DNA of 29,892 nucleotides from a virus (lineage: Duplodnaviria > Heunggongvirae > Uroviricota > Caudoviricetes): positions 64,001 to 93,892 of IMG/VR virus record IMGVR_UViG_3300020576_001396; one strand, given 5' to 3'. The notes beneath the pieces were generated by a model, which made no database searches, was not told where the DNA came from, and saw only the letters and a list, made by a program, of their open reading frames with translations. Positions 1 to 25,994 of this stretch are shown piece after piece (position 1 is the stretch's first letter; each line of letters opens with the position of its first letter). The position numbers were made by a program, and so were the translations under genes.

Positions 1-3000
1 AACTAAACGTTGATTGCTTGTGTTAACAAATGTAAAATCTGTTATCATATATTTCTCTCTGATACGTTCATTGAACATTCTAGTCTTATCTAGGTTTGCT
101 GCTGCGAACACGTCAGGATTGGTATCGTAGTTCTTGTTTACTGCATTACGTGGTACGAATGTAGTCCATTCTCTTTCGTCTCTCTCTAGGTTAGTTCCGT
201 ATACCAAGTCACAGTAGTCTGTATTCTGGTAGTTGTTATAACATCTGATTGAGTTAAAGGTTCTGTTATATATCTCTATGTTATTAGAAGTTACTGTAGA
301 AACTATAGACAGATTATCAAATGCTTTTGTGTATCCGTAGTCATCATTGAATACTACTTTAATAGTAGAGTCTTTGTACTTAGGTGATGCTGACAGGGTT
401 TCACTTGCTGCAACCCCTGGTATGTAGGAATGAAATACACAACGGTCTTTTATCAGGCTGTTATGATAGAAGAGTAGGTCATTAGAGTATACGTGATTCG
501 TTGATAAATACCCCTCGTTAAACGGTATAAATTTATAAGTATAATAGTCGTAGAAAGATGAGAAAGAATCTATGACTATATTTTCGTCAAAAGATAGGGT
601 TACTCCGTTCGCTGTGCTTGTATTATAAAACGACATTAATACTTGATTGTACCTCTTATCATATACTGTTCTTATTACATTGTACTGTAGATTAGCAGGA
701 GACAGCCTTTCTTCAAACCATGACTGCATCTGTTTACTCTTGGTTATGTTCTCCAAAGCATTGGTAAATCTATATATCGACTTGTCTTTAGTATTAAGCC
801 AGTACACACCGCTTTGTGAAGCTACAACGTGTTGATTATTAGTAGAGCCTACTTTATCAGAAACGTAATCATACCTGTCTAATACACCCCCTGTACCAAG
901 TACTAGAGCTGCTCCACCACTATCTTGAACTAATGATCTATCGTTAACGGAAAGTACACCGAAAGCGTTCTCTTGCCAAAATAATAGCTTGTCATTTACA
1001 TTAGACAATGTAGTTATAGGACCGTGGTTGGTCTGAACTTCTATAAAATCATTTATAGGAAACAACGTGAATGAATCTTGAGCTTCTCCATTAATCTTAG
1101 TTTTAGATACCTTTACCATACAATCAAACTCAGTATCTGTTGATACGGAAGTAGGTACGTTAACGTAGAACTTAGCATTTGATTCCTGTGAATAGACTGT
1201 ATTATATTGATACAATGAAGTCTTCTGGTCGTAGGTATCACCGGATAGGTTAGTCCACTTGCCTGCTACTTCTTGTATATTATAGTTATAAGCGTCTAAC
1301 GCTGCCTTACTAGAACTTCTATCATGACGTAGGTCACAATTTACAGAACTTTCTAAAGGAACAAAAACATTTTCATTTAATGTATTATTGTAAGTCTTCG
1401 TAAGGTCTGCTAGTTGTGTGCTTACATCAAAGAAGTTTATAAAGGTATCACCATTCCATGCAGTATAAGTAGGACTTGTGGACGTAATTATATCGGAAGC
1501 AGGTATAGCAATGTTTCCCTCCCTTGATTCAAAGGATTGCCCTCCATACTGTGACACGTGTACATCTCTTTTATAGTTAACAACAACAAGACTTACTCCT
1601 TCAGCAGCCCATGTATCATTTGTATGATGTACAAATAAACCAGAACACCCTAAGGCAGAAGTAGCAGAGTCATAGTTAGCACACGTAGTTGCGTTGAATG
1701 AAAAAGTATTAGTGTTAGACCTAGGTTCTACATACAAAGCATCATCGATAGTAGCTTTTGTACTATCAGAATAAGCTACCAATGCGTTAGTATCACATTT
1801 ATAATACTTTAACCAAGCATTACCTGTAACAAGACAAGATGGGTAGTAAGTTACATACTCTAAGTAATCTGAGGACCCTTTTGAAATATTTTTAGTAACG
1901 TTTATTTCTGGTGATACGAGTTTAACTATGTTCCCTGTAGCTGCTATGGTATTCGTCATTACCCTTGGTCTTGAAGCAGCTGATACAGAACCAACTGGTA
2001 TTACAAGAGCTTGTGTAAGTATTGAACGATCATCCCCTTGTCGTTCCATACGTAGCAACTGTGCTGATACAGCTCCTGTAGGGAAACTGTTTAACTTAAC
2101 CGTAGGGTATAAAGCTGTAGTGTTGATGTTTGATCCACTCAATACCGATAAAGCATGGTATCCATTATCATGCAAGCTTGGCATACGTAAATCACATACC
2201 CATTTAGCAGGACTTGCTATACCGTGTGCATTAAAGAATACTATGTATAGTCTATATACCTCATCTCGTTGCCATGACTTTCTACCAGACATGTATGGAC
2301 TAGCGAAGCTGGTATATGATTTATTATCTGTTTGGTCTTCAGTACCAGCAGAAAACACATTACCACTGTTATTGTTATCAAGATTTATAGTATCTGTGGT
2401 AAATCCTATTTTAATGTTAGGGCCTTCCGCTCCTAAAGTAGAGCCATTGCTTTGAAACTTGTACGCATAAGTAGCATTACCGTCATTATAAGGATCATTA
2501 TAAGGATTTATACCGTCGTGATCTGGTAAATAACTTGACCAGTTGGTGAATGTCTGATTTATCGTAACGTTACCTGCAGTATCTGTAACTAACGCTTGAT
2601 TAGAAGAGTTAAAACGTACTGCTCTAGCATCCCAATCTCCTATTGAGAATTCTTCTTTAGTTATGTTACTTGCAAATAAACGTTCGTCCTTTATAGTAAG
2701 GTCTTTAGCACCAAATAACTCTGTGTGCCCTAAGTTAAGCTCGTCAAGTGTATAAGTACCATAAGAGGTAGCACCTGTATCTAGATAAGATATTGTAGCA
2801 GGACTAGAAGTTAATGGAACTTCGCCCACAACTGTTATAGTAGGTACAGAATTAATAGTTTCATAGTGAAGACGTATTACCCTTATATGACTATACTTAG
2901 CACTGTCAGGTGTTGTAAAAGTCATACGAACACTCTTACCTGTAGTCTTACTTAAATCTGCTTCACCTTTATAGTAGTAAGAGCCTAAAAGATAATCATT

Positions 3001-3879
3001 ATCTGTGGTTATGTGTATAGTGTTACTTAAAGGAGATATGGAGGTCTCGGCACCATGGTTGTTGAAATACTGAAAAGCATACTGTACTACCCCTGCTTTG
3101 ATAGCACCGGGGGATAATCTGTCGAGTATAGGCTTGTGAAGTAGGGCTTCTGGTATAAACTCAAACAAGTCTGGTTGAAAGTAATAGTTTACACCAACTG
3201 AGTATGGGTCTTTATCTGTAGTTAGACTGTCTGTAATGTTAGCATAACGCATATTGTTATACCCATCACACCAGTATATTTTTTGTATAGTAGGAGTTTC
3301 ATATGCGCCTACTGACCTTATAGGATATGCTGTACTAAATTTTAAATATCCAGCACTGTTGTTTAAGTTATCATCATATACTACTGCAAAGTCTGTGAAG
3401 GACTCCGTAGAAGCATCTATTTTAAATTTAACTATCTTGCTATGTCCTGTTGTAGGAGTAGTAGTCGTATTAGAAGTTAGAAACAATACAATAGTATCAC
3501 GTATTGTCACACTTCCTACTACATACATGTCATCTTCTGTGAAAGCGTTTAGGTCAGATACCATTGCTCCTGCACCTGTAAATATAATAGGTGAGGATAG
3601 TACTGTGAATATTTGTCCTAATGTATAAGCAACGCTATTATAAGTCGCAGTACCTTTAACTACAATGTATCTGTGCCCTGTCTGTAAAGAACAAGGACTT
3701 AAAGCAGTAGAAATGTTATTATTACCTTCTATGTTCTCTAAGCCTCCTGTAGACTCTCCTACACTAGTTATAAGTCGTATGTTATGTGCGTCTAAATAAC
3801 GTTCCTTAGATATCAAAGACTTATCCAAGTCCTTGACCATACCCATCTGGAACGTGTGTACAGCTTGTTTAGCACTCAT
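1..3879 (-). CDS. Tail muzzle / tail stabilization protein (crAss001 gp44-like, P22 gp10-related), 3' end outside the window
   Basis: Not in the ORF track. ATG at 3879 overlaps the upstream TAA (TAATG). I read all 1293 codons to position 1 and found no stop. Recognisable motifs: MSAKQAVHTFQMGMVKDLDKSLISKERYLDAHNIRLI, IQKIYWCDGYNNMRYAN, AGVVQYAFQYF, KSWQRDEVYRLYIVFF...KWVCDLRMP, LVLGTGGVLDRYDY, RINEREKYMITDF-like C-terminus. It sits directly after ring protein 1, as in crAss-like phages. Confidence 0.9.
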   Translation of the reverse strand, partial: MSAKQAVHTFQMGMVKDLDKSLISKERYLDAHNIRLITSVGESTGGLENIEGNNNISTALSPCSLQTGHRYIVVKGTATYNSVAYTLGQIFTVLSSPIIFTGAGAMVSDLNAFTEDDMYVVGSVTIRDTIVLFLTSNTTTTPTTGHSKIVKFKIDASTESFTDFAVVYDDNLNNSAGYLKFSTAYPIRSVGAYETPTIQKIYWCDGYNNMRYANITDSLTTDKDPYSVGVNYYFQPDLFEFIPEALLHKPILDRLSPGAIKAGVVQYAFQYFNNHGAETSISPLSNTIHITTDNDYLLGSYYYKGEADLSKTTGKSVRMTFTTPDSAKYSHIRVIRLHYETINSVPTITVVGEVPLTSSPATISYLDTGATSYGTYTLDELNLGHTELFGAKDLTIKDERLFASNITKEEFSIGDWDARAVRFNSSNQALVTDTAGNVTINQTFTNWSSYLPDHDGINPYNDPYNDGNATYAYKFQSNGSTLGAEGPNIKIGFTTDTINLDNNNSGNVFSAGTEDQTDNKSYTSFASPYMSGRKSWQRDEVYRLYIVFFNAHGIASPAKWVCDLRMPSLHDNGYHALSVLSGSNINTTALYPTVKLNSFPTGAVSAQLLRMERQGDDRSILTQALVIPVGSVSAASRPRVMTNTIAATGNIVKLVSPEINVTKNISKGSSDYLEYVTYYPSCLVTGNAWLKYYKCDTNALVAYSDSTKATIDDALYVEPRSNTNTFSFNATTCANYDSATSALGCSGLFVHHTNDTWAAEGVSLVVVNYKRDVHVSQYGGQSFESREGNIAIPASDIITSTSPTYTAWNGDTFINFFDVSTQLADLTKTYNNTLNENVFVPLESSVNCDLRHDRSSSKAALDAYNYNIQEVAGKWTNLSGDTYDQKTSLYQYNTVYSQESNAKFYVNVPTSVSTDTEFDCMVKVSKTKINGEAQDSFTLFPINDFIEVQTNHGPITTLSNVNDKLLFWQENAFGVLSVNDRSLVQDSGGAALVLGTGGVLDRYDYVSDKVGSTNNQHVVASQSGVYWLNTKDKSIYRFTNALENITKSKQMQSWFEERLSPANLQYNVIRTVYDKRYNQVLMSFYNTSTANGVTLSFDENIVIDSFSSFYDYYTYKFIPFNEGYLSTNHVYSNDLLFYHNSLIKDRCVFHSYIPGVAASETLSASPKYKDSTIKVVFNDDYGYTKAFDNLSIVSTVTSNNIEIYNRTFNSIRCYNNYQNTDYCDLVYGTNLERDEREWTTFVPRNAVNKNYDTNPDVFAAANLDKTRMFNERIREKYMITDFTFVNTSNQRLV

Positions 3880-4796
3880 TATTTATTCTTATTGTAGATT
3901 ATCTGACGATCACTTAGTGTTGAGAATCCGTTTGCGTGTTCGTGTATCTCAGGTATAAGCCTTAACCACTGATTTTTTATACTCTCAAGTTGATCTATAT
4001 TAGGCATCATTGCATTACCATAAGCCTTCTTACATGTGAAGTTCCACGAACGTCTAGCATCGTAGTATACCTCATCGCGTACTCTACCTAGTTTCCATTC
4101 TGGATAAAGTAGCTTCATTGTTACGTACCAGTATAAAGCTTCTATGAAGTCTACATCGTCTGGTATCATTGGGTAACCATCATTGTCTGTCGGTATAGCT
4201 TGATAAGCTAACATTATATAACCATTCCTGATGTTGGTTTTAATGTAGTTGTTGTTTATAAAATACTTGTAAGTACCATCGTAGTTATAGGCTTCCGTCT
4301 CCATTCCTATACCGTTACTAGGGTACATTCTGTTTAGCATAACAGTAAGTGTATCCCGTACGTTAGGTTCTACATTTAATTTAAGCAAAGCAGCGTCATA
4401 ATCCAAACTGTACAGCGACATAGCTAAGGTTACATAGGAACTCTCAGGGAAGGCATTTGATATGGAGCTTACCTCGTTAACTGTCTTACCTACTTCAAAA
4501 GAACCTGTACCATATATCATAGGATAATAAGGTCCTGTAACATTCTCTGAGAAACTAACCTGTATTATTGAATGAAAGTCATTAGGTAGTTTAGCTTGAT
4601 AGTCAAATACCTCAAGGAAGGGGTTACCGTCTTTACCTGCTACCTTATTTATAAACGATGGAAAAGCGCCTATCTTTAGTAGACCTTCAGCACACCATTC
4701 AATCATGTCTGTTATACGGTGGTCACCTTCTTTTAAATCTAAGTCTGTAAAGACCTTTGCAATTACTCTTTTTACACTTGTAGTTTTATACAACAT
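3879..4796 (-). CDS. Tail ring protein 1 / tail tubular protein (crAss001 gp43-like, P22 gp4-related)
   Basis: 305 aa with SVKRVIAKVFTDLDL, YIKTNIRNGYIMLAYQAIPTDNDGYPMIPD, EALYWYVTMKLLYP and AYGNAMMPNIDQLESIKNQW; immediately upstream of the muzzle gene. Confidence 0.85.
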   Translation of the reverse strand: MLYKTTSVKRVIAKVFTDLDLKEGDHRITDMIEWCAEGLLKIGAFPSFINKVAGKDGNPFLEVFDYQAKLPNDFHSIIQVSFSENVTGPYYPMIYGTGSFEVGKTVNEVSSISNAFPESSYVTLAMSLYSLDYDAALLKLNVEPNVRDTLTVMLNRMYPSNGIGMETEAYNYDGTYKYFINNNYIKTNIRNGYIMLAYQAIPTDNDGYPMIPDDVDFIEALYWYVTMKLLYPEWKLGRVRDEVYYDARRSWNFTCKKAYGNAMMPNIDQLESIKNQWLRLIPEIHEHANGFSTLSDRQIIYNKNK

Positions 4797-5409
4797 AATT
4801 ATTATTTTTAAAAACCCACTTATACCCAGACGCTGATTTTCTTTTTCCTAAAGCAACTAAACTTATGTTTACTTGTTTATTTCGGTTTCCTAAAAATACA
4901 GCTGCTTCAACTGCAGATTCAAATTCTTTTAAAGGTTGTTTTGTTTTTTTATCCAGCATGATTATTGCTTTTTTCATATTCTTAACTCTATAAGAATTTA
5001 ACGCACTTATAGATTGTTTTTTTCTAACTTTTATTAATTCTTCATTAGTAAGTCTACAAATTCCTCTTTTACCTTTTTTTGAAACAGATATTTTTAGTTT
5101 TGTAACTTCACTGCAAATACAACCCAATGAACTACCAGCAACATATAATATATTATATTCTGGTTTTAAATCCAAGTATTTTTGTTCTATAAATAGTAAA
5201 GTATCCTTAATTGGCTCGCAGAGCTCTAGTATGTTGAATTCAAAATGTTGTTCCCCATATTTGTTCCAAGCTCTCTGTAACTTTATAGACTTATGGTTAT
5301 TGTTCCACAAAGAATATTTATGTGACATAAAACGCTTACATATATCAATACTACTACCAATATATCTATGACTATTTAATTTATTTCTTATTTCGTAAAT
5401 CCCTGACAT
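4786..5409 (-). CDS. Free-standing GIY-YIG homing endonuclease (I-TevI-like) with NUMOD3- and NUMOD1-type DNA-binding segments
   Basis: SGIYEIRN...RYIGSS...R...H catalytic domain, EQKYLD...PEYNI..AGSSLG, SEVTKLKISVSKKG, C-terminal KEFESAVEAA...GKRKSASGYKWVF; the DNA is visibly more AT-rich than the flanking ring gene. Confidence 0.9.
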   Translation of the reverse strand: MSGIYEIRNKLNSHRYIGSSIDICKRFMSHKYSLWNNNHKSIKLQRAWNKYGEQHFEFNILELCEPIKDTLLFIEQKYLDLKPEYNILYVAGSSLGCICSEVTKLKISVSKKGKRGICRLTNEELIKVRKKQSISALNSYRVKNMKKAIIMLDKKTKQPLKEFESAVEAAVFLGNRNKQVNISLVALGKRKSASGYKWVFKNNNYVV

Positions 5410-6760: not shown

Positions 6761-7224
6761 TATGCTCTTTCAAAATAATCATTTTCTCTTGTCTTTACAA
6801 GTCTTGCAACTTCACGCTTGATTGCTCTAGCGGGTTTAAATATGTAGGCAGTCTTATTATCAGTCATGCTTTTTTTACGATCCCAGTAGAATCTGTAAAC
6901 ATAACCATTACTATGTTCGTTAAACTGTCGTACTTGTTTGTTCTGTTCCTTGGACTTGTCCCAGTCCATAACCATGTTCTTTAAAGACTTGTACACAGGT
7001 TTGTGTTTAACAACTGTTATCTCTCCCAACCTAAAAGGTAGACATATTGTAGTAGACTTGTAAACAAGCTGTTCTGTCATATGCTTTAGAAACATGGTTG
7101 TTATATCTCTGTACTCGAGGTACTTTAAATAATAGTCTGAACCTTCAGGATACTTAATTAAATAGTCCTTGTAACTATCTTGTATAGTATAAGGATTCTG
7201 TATCTTATTCTTGCCTATACCCAT
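6760..7224 (-). CDS. crAss-type IHF/HU-like DNA-binding protein
   Basis: LPFRLGEITVVKHKP...DWDKSK...NEHSNGYVYRFYW...NK..Y...PARAIKREVARLVK; located between ring genes, as in crAss-like tail modules. Confidence 0.75.
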   Translation of the reverse strand: MGIGKNKIQNPYTIQDSYKDYLIKYPEGSDYYLKYLEYRDITTMFLKHMTEQLVYKSTTICLPFRLGEITVVKHKPVYKSLKNMVMDWDKSKEQNKQVRQFNEHSNGYVYRFYWDRKKSMTDNKTAYIFKPARAIKREVARLVKTRENDYFERA

Positions 7225-7916
7225 TACTCAGCGTTTACAGACACTTCGTTGGAACTGTCATTCTTATTGTCACTTGGTGCTTGAGAAAGTATACCAAGCT
7301 CTTTGGAGAGTATCATCTCCTTTAATACAGGTACCATGTTAGCTGGTATAGGATAAGCATCTCTGTATTCTAGTGTAACAACTTCAGAATTAGGATTAAT
7401 ATAGTTACCTACTTCAGTTGGAACTTCAAATATACCACGTACTGTTATTGACTCTAAGGGAGTTGGATAAGTAATGTATAAATGTTTATTACGTAAGAAT
7501 GCTAGAGGGTTGTTGGCGGTGAAGCGCTTATACTTCTGCCACTTAGTCCTTCCCTCTGGTACGAGTTGAATCTCGTTTCCGTCTATAGTGCCTAGGTATG
7601 TGAAGCCCGGCTTAAAGTTAAGGTCTAAGGTTTTAGGAACAGCAAGCTTCGTTCTCAGAAAGAAGGTCTCTGACTTGAGGTCTACCTCCTTAGATTGATC
7701 TACAACTTCCAACAACAACCCTGGAATCTCTTGAATGTAATCTGGATTAGGCATCTTGCCTTTATCCATATCTTGTTTAATAAGTAAAGCCCTATACTGA
7801 TTAATCCACTCTTCGACTTGTCTACGTGTTATAGTTTCACTTTGTGTAACTTTGCTACCACGTATTATGTTGAGTAAGTCAGTAATTATATTGTCTAGTG
7901 TAATGAATGTAATCAT
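7224..7916 (-). CDS. Tail ring protein 2 (crAss001 gp40-like)
   Basis: ITLDNIITDLLNIIR, WINQYRALLIKQDMDKGKMPNPDYIQ, YPIPANMVPVLKEMILSKEL. Confidence 0.8.
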   Translation of the reverse strand: MITFITLDNIITDLLNIIRGSKVTQSETITRRQVEEWINQYRALLIKQDMDKGKMPNPDYIQEIPGLLLEVVDQSKEVDLKSETFFLRTKLAVPKTLDLNFKPGFTYLGTIDGNEIQLVPEGRTKWQKYKRFTANNPLAFLRNKHLYITYPTPLESITVRGIFEVPTEVGNYINPNSEVVTLEYRDAYPIPANMVPVLKEMILSKELGILSQAPSDNKNDSSNEVSVNAE

Positions 7917-11338: not shown

Positions 11339-11773
11339 TTAATCCTCTTGAAAGATTAAGTCTCCGGCTGAGAACTGAGGCTGAATACCCACACTAATGT
11401 TACGTGGGCTATTTAACTGCCCTGAATATAAAATCTGACCAGCACCACTAGCAGCTGTACCAACAGCAACGTAAGTGATTGTATCTGACCCTACTGTACA
11501 TAAAGCAAATTGTATTAATGCAGTATTACTTGCCTGGTTACCAGAGACTGTCCATCCACCAGCTGTACGTGATACTGCAACCCTACCATATGAACCTGAA
11601 TTATATGTAGCTTCACTTGTTGTTTGTGAACCACCTTCACCCGGGTCTGCTGTATGTAACGATACGTAAAGGTCAGTATTACCTGTACCCGATAGTGTTC
11701 CAAGATATGAAGGTAATGTCTTATTAAATATAAGCAACATTAAATCGTTCTCGGCTGTATTACTTTTACTCAT
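11339..11773 (-). CDS. Phage minor tail/fibre-associated protein (144 aa)
   Basis: LYVSLHTADPGEGG...E...YGRVAV...W...SN...I.F motif family, widespread in tailed-phage tail regions. Confidence 0.7.
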   Translation of the reverse strand: MSKSNTAENDLMLLIFNKTLPSYLGTLSGTGNTDLYVSLHTADPGEGGSQTTSEATYNSGSYGRVAVSRTAGGWTVSGNQASNTALIQFALCTVGSDTITYVAVGTAASGAGQILYSGQLNSPRNISVGIQPQFSAGDLIFQED

Positions 11774-11779
11774 TTTAAA

Positions 11780-12760
11780 TTATGTTATTGTTATGTTAAC
11801 AGACGCAAGAGTTGCATCTGGGTTGTATGAAAATATCTTTGTAACGGTGTCTGTTAGTCTAAACCAAACTATAGTTGATACAGTGCTGTCTGGATTATAT
11901 ACAAATGTTTTATATTGTCCATCAGCGTAGTCGATTCTAGTAACTAAACCATCTGAGTAAGTGTAGGTACTATTAGAAAGCATTGAATCGCCACCACCCC
12001 CTGTACCGTCTAAACCATCTCGACCAGGTCTACCATCGCGACCGTTAGCCCCATTTATTATAAAGTAGTCTACACCTAAAATAGGCTTATCGCCTTTTTC
12101 TCCTTTAGGTCCTCGTTTACCATCAGTACCTGGAAGTCCTGATTCACCACGATCTCCTTTATCACCTTTCTCACCACGTTCACCAGGTTTACCATCGGCT
12201 CCGTCTTTACCTGATGGACCACGCAAACCTCTTTTACCTTCAGGTCCACGTTCACCACGTTCACCGGTAGCACCTACTGGTCCTGGTTCCCCACGAGAAC
12301 CCTCAGGTCCTGTGTCACCGTTTCTACCATCAGTACCAGGTTCACCTTTAGGCCCCTGTATATCTTTCAGTGCTATTATGTTGTACCACTTACCTTCATC
12401 AGCATAACCCCACTGTAAGTGAGTATCGCTGGTATGTAACTCTAGCTTACGGCCTTCAGGACCAACAGGACCTACTTCACCTTGTGGGCCTTTAGCCCCC
12501 ATGAAACCTTGTTCTCCCTGCTCTCCTTGTGGTCCCTGTTCACCAGTTATATCTTCAAGGTAAACAAGTGTATACCACTCGTCTGTACCTATGTAATGCC
12601 ACTGTATTGAATCGTTAGCCTTACGTAACTCTATTTCTCTACCATCGCTACCGGAGGCACCATCAAAATAGTGTACACCTTTAACAGGTGAATAATCACT
12701 ATCTGTAGTGTCTAATAGAGAACGTAGTAAAGCTTTACGTTTGCTTGAGATTGGAGACAT
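11780..12760 (-). CDS. Collagen triple-helix repeat protein (326 aa), putative fibre
   Basis: G-X-Y runs of 11 and 30 triplets, each preceded by a GR(E/K)(I/L)EL...(I/L)QW.Y....W...I.L.DI.G linker; C-terminal short YxYNxD repeats. Confidence 0.85.
12086..12355 (-). repeat. Uninterrupted collagen (Gly-X-Y)30
   Basis: GPKGEPGTD...GPKGEKGDK, counted triplet by triplet. Confidence 0.95.
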
Positions 12761-13722: not shown

Positions 13723-14190
13723 TTATTTATAAGGTTCGTACGTCTTTTTATTATTTACAGTTTTCATTTTTAGTACTTGCATACGTAGAGGGGTTTTGTA
13801 AGTATAGCTAACATGTACCCAATCTGGTTCTGTATCAGTACCAGCTTCCCATATGAGTTGGTCAAACTCTAAATGGTCTTTGATATAATCAAATATCTCT
13901 TTGTTAGTTGTTCCACCAAATTTCTCTGCATCTAAGTCCATGGCTTCACCGGTCATGTGTTGACTATTCTTTGCGCCCTTCATAGCTTTGTTTAAGGCTT
14001 CTGAACGAAAGCAAGAACTTATATAGATGGGTACCTTCAACGCTTCCCTCAAAGGTTCAAATATCTTTAGAGCTGTAGTCTTAATGCGCTCTGTCTGACC
14101 CCCATTAGGTTCATTGGATATACCTAGTCTTTTAGCTGTGTCACTATGTACTACTTCAGAGTACAGTACGTGTGTGGATATACTTTCCAT
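13723..14190 (-). CDS. Endolysin, peptidase M15 family (Zn D-Ala-D-Ala carboxypeptidase fold)
   Basis: FEPLRE...ISSCFRSEALN, SQHMTGEAMD (His and Asp Zn ligands), FDQLIWE and WVHVSY. Confidence 0.9.
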   Translation of the reverse strand: MESISTHVLYSEVVHSDTAKRLGISNEPNGGQTERIKTTALKIFEPLREALKVPIYISSCFRSEALNKAMKGAKNSQHMTGEAMDLDAEKFGGTTNKEIFDYIKDHLEFDQLIWEAGTDTEPDWVHVSYTYKTPLRMQVLKMKTVNNKKTYEPYK

Positions 14191-22796: not shown

Positions 22797-23693
22797 TTAT
22801 TCGTTTTGATTGATTTCGATAGACTCTGTTTGATAACGTGGAGATTCTATGTTTTCAGTTAGTACTTTAACTGCTAACAACACAATCTCTCTGTGAGTGT
22901 GTTCCGGCAAATCGCAATCAGTTAACTGAGCTGTAGCCGTACCAGTATTTGTGAAGGCTGTCTGCCCTAACACTCCGGTAAACACTTCTCCTACGCTATA
23001 CGATGCACCATTATAGGTTACTGTGGAACCAGATACTTTGTATTTAATTCCTTCAACTATGTTAGATGTCCCGGCTGTCTGAGAATCCGTCAGTGCAAGA
23101 TTTACTCTTGCTGGTTTACGTAAGTACTTTAGAAAGTAATTCGAAATGGTGTACTGTCCGTCTGTAATTAACTCAATACCTTTTTCAGAAAACAGTCTTA
23201 ATGGTCTAGCAGTACCCAGATGTAAGATATGTTCACTATAAGGATTATTTATCATGGTGCTATATGTGTCTGAAGAACATACAACCGGATAAGTACGAAG
23301 AGTCTTACCCACACCTAGTACAGGATGAGTAAAACTAATACTTACTTCGTCATTGAGAAAAAGCATATAATCTGCAGGTAACCCTGTAGAGTCAATATGA
23401 TATGAATTTGGTTTGAATGAAATTGTATAACCATTAACTACCTCAGTTGCTGAGCTAGATGTGGGGGTTAACACAACCTCTTTAACTAGACTTCTTAAGT
23501 CGTCAACTCTCTTCTGAGACTGTTCAAAAGATTCACGTTTGACATTCATTCCTGAATATCTAACTTTAACGAATCTGTCTATTGCCTCGTTTATCCAAAA
23601 GTCAATCTCTTCTGTCTTAAAAGCAGCATAAGTCAGGCCTTCGGTTTTATCCAGACCTAACTTAACCGCTAAATGCATTGATTGAATGTTCAT
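22797..23693 (-). CDS. Tail ring protein (crAss001 gp34/gp35-like) with a 40-aa insert
   Basis: LDK...EEIDFWINEAIDRFVKVRYSG, FEQSQKRVDDLRSLVKE, YLRKP and CDLPEHTHREIVLLAV. Confidence 0.8.
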   Translation of the reverse strand: MNIQSMHLAVKLGLDKTEGLTYAAFKTEEIDFWINEAIDRFVKVRYSGMNVKRESFEQSQKRVDDLRSLVKEVVLTPTSSSATEVVNGYTISFKPNSYHIDSTGLPADYMLFLNDEVSISFTHPVLGVGKTLRTYPVVCSSDTYSTMINNPYSEHILHLGTARPLRLFSEKGIELITDGQYTISNYFLKYLRKPARVNLALTDSQTAGTSNIVEGIKYKVSGSTVTYNGASYSVGEVFTGVLGQTAFTNTGTATAQLTDCDLPEHTHREIVLLAVKVLTENIESPRYQTESIEINQNE

Positions 23694-24530: not shown

Positions 24531-25994
24531 TTACTCAGCTTCGCAAATAAGTTCTCCAGAGCTATTTGGGAATCTTAACATGATACCCTGTTCTGAAAGG
24601 AAGTTAACTGTGTAACCGTCTTTTGCGTTAGACCTAAGAGTTGTGATAGATTTAGAGTGACCTGAGCCTGGAGCTACAGAACCACCAACATACCACATAA
24701 CCATTTCGCGGTCTTTGCGAACTACTTTTACCAGGTTAGATTCACCATCACGGCTACCGATATCAACAATAGTGAAACGGTATGACTCGAGAGGTTTACC
24801 TGATATTGGATGTAACTTACGGTTGTAAACCAAGTTGTCGTACATCGGGAAATGCTTGAGGGTAAGTTCAATACCGTTGAGCATTTTGTATGTAGTAAAC
24901 TGTCCACCAAGTGTAAGATTCTGTCCACTACCTGTAACGAAGTTGGTAGCAATCAGCTGGTATGTAGAAGCTTTGTCGCGAAGAACGCGGTCAAATTCTT
25001 TCATACCCATCTCACCTGTGAGGGCAACGAATTTACGCTCGTTAGTTCCAAGAATATTATATGAAAGGTCGAAGAGGAATTCCTCGAGAATGTCAGCGGT
25101 CAGAGTTGTATAGTAACGTCTGTTAGCTGGAGCAATCTGCTCAAGAAGACCTGCGCCGATATAAACCGGACGACCGTTTGTACCCATAAGGTCTGTGGTA
25201 CCATCAGCGTTTGCATTGTATTTTGAGTATACTGAGTAACGCTCGATTGTATCATACCACTGACGAATAGCTCTCCACTCCTGGTAGTCTGACCAGAGGT
25301 AAGATGATTTGCCAGTAGCTGGGTCCCTGAGGGCGATAACCATAACTGAAGAGTAAGCGTCACCGGTGATATCGTACTGCAGACGCATTGTTGTCAGGTG
25401 GTTCCTGAGTTTGAATGGTGTCTGATAGTTCACGATATCAGCTTCTTCGCTGTATTCTTCGTATGCACTACCTTCTCTACTTATCTGTTTTCCAACAGCC
25501 AAGAGTGAAGGCGGAATGAATGACTCTGGTTTTCCGTCAGCCATAACCAGGGTATATACGTAGTCCGAACCGTCTTGGTAGGGCTCGCCCTGGATTCTAG
25601 CCTGGAACTCTCTGTCGTCAAATGCGACAACAGCACCAGGACCAAACCATTTTTCTGCAACCCAAATCTGGATTGGTGTTCCGTTGATACCGGGAACGTC
25701 GGCTGTGCCTATAGAGGCACCATTCCATTTAGCTGCTTTGATTGTAATCGCTTTATCCGATTCAATCATAACTGGCCATTCGTACTGTCTGTTTTCTACT
25801 ACAAGAGTTTTACCAAGACCCATTGTGAGGAAGTCGAGGGTGTTGTTCTCGTATTTACCAAACACATAAGAGATAACTGTAGATACCTGATACGGCTTAG
25901 TAAGCAGTGCGGTGGCAAGCATGTTTTCGTCAACTAAGTCCGAAAAACGTTTGGAACGGTAGAGTACTAGATTGTTTAATGAAGTATTATCCAT
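24531..25994 (-). CDS. Major capsid protein, crAss-like (HK97 fold)
   Basis: LNNLVLYRSKRFSDLVDENML, GKQISREGSAYEEYSEEADI, FKLRNHLTTMRLQYDITGDAYS, GRPVYIGAGLLEQI and SNAKDGYTVNFLSEQGIMLR; no intron or intein. Confidence 0.93.
   Translation of the reverse strand: MDNTSLNNLVLYRSKRFSDLVDENMLATALLTKPYQVSTVISYVFGKYENNTLDFLTMGLGKTLVVENRQYEWPVMIESDKAITIKAAKWNGASIGTADVPGINGTPIQIWVAEKWFGPGAVVAFDDREFQARIQGEPYQDGSDYVYTLVMADGKPESFIPPSLLAVGKQISREGSAYEEYSEEADIVNYQTPFKLRNHLTTMRLQYDITGDAYSSVMVIALRDPATGKSSYLWSDYQEWRAIRQWYDTIERYSVYSKYNANADGTTDLMGTNGRPVYIGAGLLEQIAPANRRYYTTLTADILEEFLFDLSYNILGTNERKFVALTGEMGMKEFDRVLRDKASTYQLIATNFVTGSGQNLTLGGQFTTYKMLNGIELTLKHFPMYDNLVYNRKLHPISGKPLESYRFTIVDIGSRDGESNLVKVVRKDREMVMWYVGGSVAPGSGHSKSITTLRSNAKDGYTVNFLSEQGIMLRFPNSSGELICEAE

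Follow-up and report, generated by a model that had tools for sequence, protein, structure and literature searches.

Two tail proteins of a crAss-like phage carry the same small beta domain, in each case as a discrete in-frame insertion. The stretch analyzed here (the window) comprises 29,892 nucleotides, positions 64,001 to 93,892 of the 93.9-kb IMG/VR record IMGVR_UViG_3300020576_001396, and the domain, referred to below as the module, is encoded twice on its minus strand: copy 1 (22920..23087, −; ~56 aa, predicted all-beta) corresponds to residues 203-258 of a ring 3/4 protein, and copy 2 (3550..3708, −; ~53 aa) to residues 58-110 of the muzzle protein. On balance, and with moderate confidence, we favor the view that the module is a previously undescribed promiscuous beta cassette which serves as an accessory adhesion or decoration unit on numerous tail proteins from uncultured phages.

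Both host proteins could be assigned with confidence. The ring protein (P0003, 298 aa; gene at 22800..23693, −) scored above the gathering threshold of PF25710 CrAss_Ring_3_4 (51.1 bits, cut-off 27) and matched gp34 of crAss001 (7qoj_E, expectation value (E) 0.0021); it is the sole R3/R4/R5-type gene in the window, since a hidden Markov model (HMM) of the ring core matched no other open reading frame (ORF) there. The muzzle protein (P0124; gene at 1..3879, −), of which 1293 of 1306 residues lie in the window, its C-terminus being cut by the window end, exceeded the same cut-off of 27 bits for both PF25731 crAss_MUZ (640.9 bits) and PF25729 (37.5 bits) and matched crAss001 gp44 (7qok_A, E 1e-19). 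A first-pass annotation of the window had paired two 40-residue segments encoded at 3568-3687 (−) and 22941-23060 (−); the minus strand at these positions translates to exactly the peptides it quoted, while the plus-strand frames are full of stops.

The proposal that these segments represent one beta module shared by two tail proteins was borne out. The ring and muzzle segments are identical at 14 of 40 positions in an ungapped alignment, and the homologous unit is longer than the 40 residues originally reported, extending over ~53-56 aa. In a BLASTP comparison of the two whole proteins the module pair was the only significant segment (15/43 identical, E 8e-05 for a single comparison), which by itself is modest evidence given the number of protein pairs per window. 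Profile searches were more decisive: an HMM built from 41 ring-protein inserts and no muzzle sequence, when searched against all 204 six-frame ORFs of the window, matched muzzle residues 65-107 (E 1.2e-07) and no other ORF significantly, and the reciprocal HMM from 12 muzzle modules of other phages matched ring protein residues 207-254 (E 4e-08). The best scores among 4,080 shuffled decoy ORFs were 11.6-14.1 bits, compared with 25-27 bits for the real matches. Chance or compositional similarity, suggested by the low count of identities and by the T-, G- and V-rich character of both segments, is ruled out by these reciprocal profiles, by the predicted strand pattern common to both copies and by the fact that both are discrete indels of equal length, and its probability is negligible. 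Homology between the ring and muzzle segments is therefore real. The two window copies do not stem from a recent duplication, because they share only 50% nucleotide identity (~35% at the protein level) and lack meaningful flanking repeats: no direct repeats flank the ring cassette, and the muzzle cassette has only a 7-nt repeat, as expected by chance. The GC content of the ring module (22920-23087) is 0.435, against 0.366 in the remainder of the gene, which may simply reflect a Gly/Thr/Ala-rich composition.

In the ring protein, the module follows the last strand of the beta-sandwich (YLRKPARV) and precedes the helix at the C-terminus (CDLPEHTH). Across 120 ring homologues, protein lengths step at about 235, 290 and 335 aa, and it is exactly over P0003 residues ~203-256 that alignment occupancy falls, from 1.0 to 0.34. 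In homologues without the module, a loop of 10-14 residues links the strand after YLRKP to the CDL motif; solved crAss001 gp34 is of this kind, with ~14 residues at the site, and the nearest relative of the ring protein's core (P0018, 86% identity over the core columns) shows a single clean 55-aa gap at the module. These data uphold the earlier view that the segment between YLRKP and CDLPEHTH is an insertion, and the same holds for the muzzle. There, the module follows an N-terminal segment of ~57 residues and precedes the first confidently predicted run of beta-strands. It behaves as a clean indel, present in 13 of 29 muzzle homologues at residues ~58-110 and missing from relatives with ~50% identity (P0135-P0138); solved crAss001 gp44, also without the module, has ~46 residues where the window muzzle has ~112. 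In neither protein family is the segment a core part of the fold in all relatives; it is a patchy, clean indel in both. An intein or an intron-like element was also considered and rejected, as the insert is a small domain of beta-strands whose reading frame is maintained and whose conservation is at the protein level.

Two further variations were seen in the ring family. Residues 84-91 of P0003 (23421-23444, −) form an 8-residue insert, EVVNGYTI, in a beta-sandwich loop with an occupancy of ~0.15; this is apparently the loop that holds a full second module copy in another ring 3/4 protein (P0012, residues 82-127), and it looks like a second permissive site. Separately, three ring 3/4 relatives (L012, L013 and L015; match 1501-2764, ~421-aa match) contain a different, larger insertion and no module, and a module copy was found nowhere in the complete 95-kb genome of L015.

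Structure prediction points to an independent fold. AlphaFold2 modeled the ring module alone (56 aa, 34-row alignment) with a predicted local distance difference test (pLDDT) score of 94.7 and six short strands (residues 2-4, 15-19, 23-25, 28-30, 35-37 and 50-54), the first and last of which are at opposite ends of the chain, as expected of a domain plugged into a loop. When muzzle residues 1-200 were modeled, the best-predicted part (pLDDT 83-90) was the module, with strands at 70-75, 78-80, 83-85, 90-92 and 106-109 that correspond to strands of the ring copy shifted by a constant 55 positions, so that the predicted structures of the two segments agree in strand pattern. According to these models, the module is a self-folding, discrete all-beta domain of ~50 residues.

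The consensus of the module is [VI]xSGx[IL]xxGxxYxVxxG[TS][VI]TYNGxxYxxG[QDE]xFxGVxGxTT[FY]TGxG. Across 214 module instances (193 non-redundant at 70% identity), conservation falls chiefly on aromatic and aliphatic residues and on glycine (I/L9, G12, Y15, V17, V/I22, Y24, Y29, G32, F35, V38, F/Y44, G48), with Y15, V17, Y24, Y29, F35 and F/Y44 among the strongest positions, and few conserved positions are polar (T23, N25, Q/D/E33, T45). Two long proteins, P0155 (943 aa) and P0157 (903 aa), matched only the central hairpin (profile positions ~18-45), repeatedly: 14 and 10 stretches, respectively, were found in the representative search described below, and 5 and 2 lay above threshold in a local re-scan. 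This suggests a related repeat built from the VTYNGxxY hairpin alone.

The module is not confined to the two sites occupied in the window. Second copies occur elsewhere in ring 3/4 proteins: in P0012 at the position given above (E 5e-13), in P0077 and related proteins of ~334-345 aa at about residues 120-165, and in P0108 at 135-179, while P0099 and P0102 have copies at 101-137 and 180-224. At least three sites are thus occupied in ring 3/4 proteins, and several in muzzle proteins, where further copies lie near residues 154-223 and 441-564. Scanning IMG/VR with the module alignment added one Ring 2 protein and tail-sheath proteins of the DUF2586/phrog_907 type. Ring 2 proteins with the module are present in other phages (L020 and the P0187 cluster), the copy lying ~50-60 residues before the C-terminus, a relative location that seems to match the one in ring 3/4 proteins.

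A wider search was made with a profile of eight module copies from ring 3/4, Ring 2 and sheath contexts (A2) against 1.84 billion representative proteins. It returned 393 clusters at E<=1e-3, 31 of them at E<=1e-10, with host proteins of 74 to 2,337 aa that carry 1-4 full copies at widely differing positions. When the module was masked, the best 147 of the 393 hits, together with the two hosts from the window, fell into at least 54 clusters separate by BLAST. All hosts that could be named are phage virion proteins, nearly all of them tail parts, and they represent at least 10 named or profile-assigned families. Besides the muzzle, these include Ring 2, Ring 3/4 (with remote forms of ~250 aa and ~330 aa), the DUF2586/phrog_907 tail sheath, a gpJ-like tip protein (Phage-tail_3/phrog_1101), a pectate-lyase-like, tailspike-like tail protein, a fibre flanked by collagen, and phrog_15220, whose sole annotation is that of a virion structural protein. 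The suggestion that the module is mobile is supported and broadened, from two proteins to multiple ring and muzzle sites and to Ring 2, sheath, gpJ-like tip, tailspike-like and fibre hosts.

GenBank phages contain almost none of the host proteins. The 56-aa module found no match among them by tblastn; P0203 was likewise unmatched, and for P0165 the only matches were three records of faecal phages that lack annotation. A pattern-based scan of genome contigs (A1) produced 67 matching stretches, none of which was confirmed, and is uninformative with regard to prophages or hosts.

The module is patchy among relatives. On a ring tree built with the module columns removed, the C-terminal site requires 18 presence/absence changes, at least 12 of which are forced by supported branches, compared with an average of 34 for shuffled labels; the muzzle tree requires 3-4 changes. 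Among near-complete crAss-like records all four ring/muzzle combinations occur: both copies in the genome of the window itself, the ring copy only in G008 (complete), the muzzle copy only in G010 (complete) and G007, and neither in G003 and G014 (both complete). Since every combination is found, the ring and muzzle insertions are independent of each other. Module sequences mostly cluster by site (14 of 14 at the muzzle N-terminal site, 43 of 50 at the ring C-terminal site), which indicates old site-specific lineages whose presence has been reshuffled, the simplest and probably the main route being homologous recombination in the conserved flanking regions, or loss. That copies have truly moved from site to site and from protein to protein is indicated by the second copy in P0012, which is 60% identical to ring C-terminal modules, and by modules at other muzzle sites, which are closest to Ring 2 or ring modules (52-57%).

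With several unrelated virion hosts and a patchy distribution among close relatives, the module has the attributes of a promiscuous decoration domain, a general kind already known from phage virions; the domain family itself is new. Foldseek searches of the module against the PDB and BFVD returned nothing at E<=0.001. The best of 48,161 chains compared by VIA-align was the jelly-roll protein PirA (Z 5.1), followed by generic cupin and double-stranded beta-helix entries whose Z~4 is background level for a common arrangement of strands. A sequence-profile search of the PDB gave no real match (one spurious mucin entry, E 4.3), a search of the ESM Atlas retrieved unnamed viral hypotheticals at 0.88, and no Pfam family covers the module in any scanned protein. 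Judged by these sequence and fold comparisons, the module belongs to a previously undescribed domain family with no detectable relative among solved or annotated domains.

Ig-like, BACON and carbohydrate-binding module (CBM) domains on phage virions are thought to bind surface glycans weakly and multivalently. Fraser and colleagues reportedly described in 2006 that the immunoglobulin (Ig)-like domains of virions (I-set, FN3, BIG2) are promiscuous and horizontally exchanged (quoted in PMC9230969). Like the module, these are small beta domains found on many unrelated structural proteins (sheath, fibres, tail tip), patchy in close relatives, dispensable for assembly and proposed to bind cell-surface carbohydrate weakly. 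They differ in that the module has ~50 residues and six short strands rather than an Ig sandwich of 80-100 residues, sits within loops rather than being appended at the C-terminus or by frameshift, and has no Pfam family; no Ig-like chain was among the top Foldseek or VIA-align fold matches. A second parallel is BACON of the crAssphage tail protein (PMC6949934), a putative carbohydrate-binding domain that is reported to be repeated, and shuffled, among the tail proteins of crAss-like phages; it is an unrelated, larger domain that forms tandem arrays, in contrast to the single loop insertions of the module.

The location of the two host proteins in the virion can be approximated from crAss001, whose gp34 and gp44 (PDB 7QOJ/7QOK) are homologues of the window's two hosts, both without the module (PMC10172136). 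In that virion the barrel's muzzle end is built from two gp34 rings, R4 and R5, of which R5 is in direct contact with the six-fold muzzle; the gp34-type ring is dodecameric and the muzzle hexameric. The ring-joining domain is first in the domain list of the crAss001 muzzle (PMC10172136). Going by this domain order, the first ~57 residues of the window muzzle may lie in its ring-joining domain, and the beta-strand run after the module is probably the first propeller blade. The two copies would then occupy adjoining layers close to the tail's distal end. This arrangement gives no support to the idea that the module decorates both ends of the tail, as a gp34-type ring adjoins the muzzle. Length variation of muzzle proteins has been attributed to insertions in the crass and IG2 domains and not to the N-terminal site, and insertions in ring proteins are not mentioned in the text of the same report (PMC10172136).

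The module behaves as a promiscuous cassette that enters loops of phage tail proteins in frame, and in this phage the rings (dodecameric in crAss001) and the hexameric muzzle would carry its copies as a belt round the distal part of the tail. Under the adhesion/decoration reading these copies face outward and would bind host polysaccharide (capsule, lipopolysaccharide or other glycans) weakly and multivalently. Their presence or absence is probably reshuffled mainly by homologous recombination in the flanks, and now and then a copy would be transferred to a new site or a new protein. From the loop position of the insertions and from the literature on added sheath domains, we infer that the copies are surface-exposed; such domains lie away from the contact with the tube, and a role in adhesion or stability has been put forward for them (PMC9230969). 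By analogy with these systems, binding of glycans is plausible, the one hint from the module itself being a partial, sub-threshold match to CBM_5_12. Several points weigh against adhesion or decoration. The outward orientation is a deduction, most of the conserved positions look structural, with no obvious common ligand site, and most hosts are unannotated, so that the restriction to tail proteins rests on the minority that can be named. In addition, neither CBM5/12 structures nor other carbohydrate-binding-module folds were among the top 50 Foldseek or VIA-align matches, a result that does not exclude that family.

The strongest competing explanation, which we consider unlikely, is that the module acts as structural cement, its contacts stabilizing the stacked rings, the joint between ring and muzzle, or the sheath discs of myoviruses. 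The direct binding of R5 to the muzzle in crAss001 (PMC10172136), together with the position of the muzzle insertion near the N-terminus, means that the two insertions could be neighbours; the mostly structural character of the conserved residues would fit such a role, and stabilization is among the functions proposed for added sheath domains (PMC9230969). However, complete relatives with the module in the ring only, in the muzzle only or in neither demonstrate that there is no obligatory partner, and a near-identical ring protein works without it. Tandem copies and hosts of the fibre, tailspike-like and gpJ-like types are likewise difficult to reconcile with cement, as ring stacking is irrelevant in such proteins. 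Adhesion or decoration is favored over a staple-like function because of the tailspike-like, fibre and tip hosts, the tandem copies, and the independence of the ring and muzzle insertions.

A further alternative concerns identity rather than placement: the module might be a divergent member of CBM family 5/12, or of Pfam DUF7210, that was missed by profiles. The module and CBM5/12 are alike in size (~45-60 aa), in being all-beta and in a common hairpin of the 'Y..G..V.YNG..Y' kind, which gives rise to weak matches. CBM_5_12 (PF02839) was matched at E<=1 by 3 of the 8 module copies (best E 0.019-0.026) and DUF7210 (PF23843) by 2 of the 8. The best scores remained below the gathering thresholds for both, at 15.5 bits against 26.2 for CBM_5_12, where the match spans model positions 5-22 of 44, and at 22.4 bits (P0183) against 27 for DUF7210, so the module cannot be assigned to either family. 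All of these matches cover the VTYNGxxY hairpin only, ~18 of ~53 residues, and the empty PDB profile search and the fold comparisons, with no CBM5/12 structure among the top matches, provide no structural counterpart. We therefore regard membership in either family as distinctly improbable.

The proposal that the module is an acceptor for a phage glycosyltransferase, which its Thr-, Ser- and Gly-rich composition and presumed surface display might suggest, is rejected as very improbable. The 93.9-kb record yielded no gene of the GT1 or GT2 families, 42 scanned ORFs of the window included no glycosyltransferase, and the module has a folded structure with tight conservation, unlike a disordered linker.

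In its most far-reaching form, the adhesion/decoration reading would make the module a fold family that is both new and very small, provisionally called a 'tail-loop beta cassette', and that acts as a plug-in unit for host adhesion as it spreads through the tail proteins of uncultured phages. We put this forward tentatively, as a possibility that is still rather doubtful. If true, swapping or adding cassettes would tune adsorption, for instance to capsules of Bacteroidota, while leaving the receptor-binding proteins untouched, and would constitute a separate combinatorial layer of host-range evolution, open to direct reading from metagenomes. Few phages are more abundant than Crassvirales and their environmental relatives, yet for most features of their virion surface no role has been assigned. 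A compact domain that is present on at least 10 kinds of tail protein and in hundreds of protein clusters, and that is gained or lost between near-identical phages, offers a testable handle on how tails acquire accessory surface functions. Moreover, it shows where ring, muzzle and sheath proteins have permissive loops, useful for display or engineering in laboratory phages, and a new profile would improve the annotation of metagenomic phage proteins. As shuffled decoration domains are already known, these implications extend an existing principle rather than establish a new one.

Other genes of the window give the context of the two hosts. The Ring 1 protein (3879..4796, −; PF24228 CrAss_Ring_1, E 3.7e-83) and the Ring 2 protein (7224..7916, −; PF25702, E 4e-50) are both without the module, as the module HMM matched neither, and the major capsid protein is encoded at 24531-25994. 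A free-standing GIY-YIG endonuclease gene (4786-5409, −; PF01541, E 5e-9) is located within the block of tail genes, directly upstream of Ring 1, whose start it overlaps by 11 nt; a homing endonuclease at this position could promote recombination in that block. Furthermore, a collagen-triple-helix repeat protein followed by a Gp80-like podophage fibre protein (11339-12760, −; PF01391, E 5e-21, and PF23140, E 3e-21) probably forms the tail fibre set. Finally, an M15 peptidase (13723-14190, −; PF08291, E 2e-15), encoded amid the structural gene block, is probably an endolysin or a virion-associated lysin.

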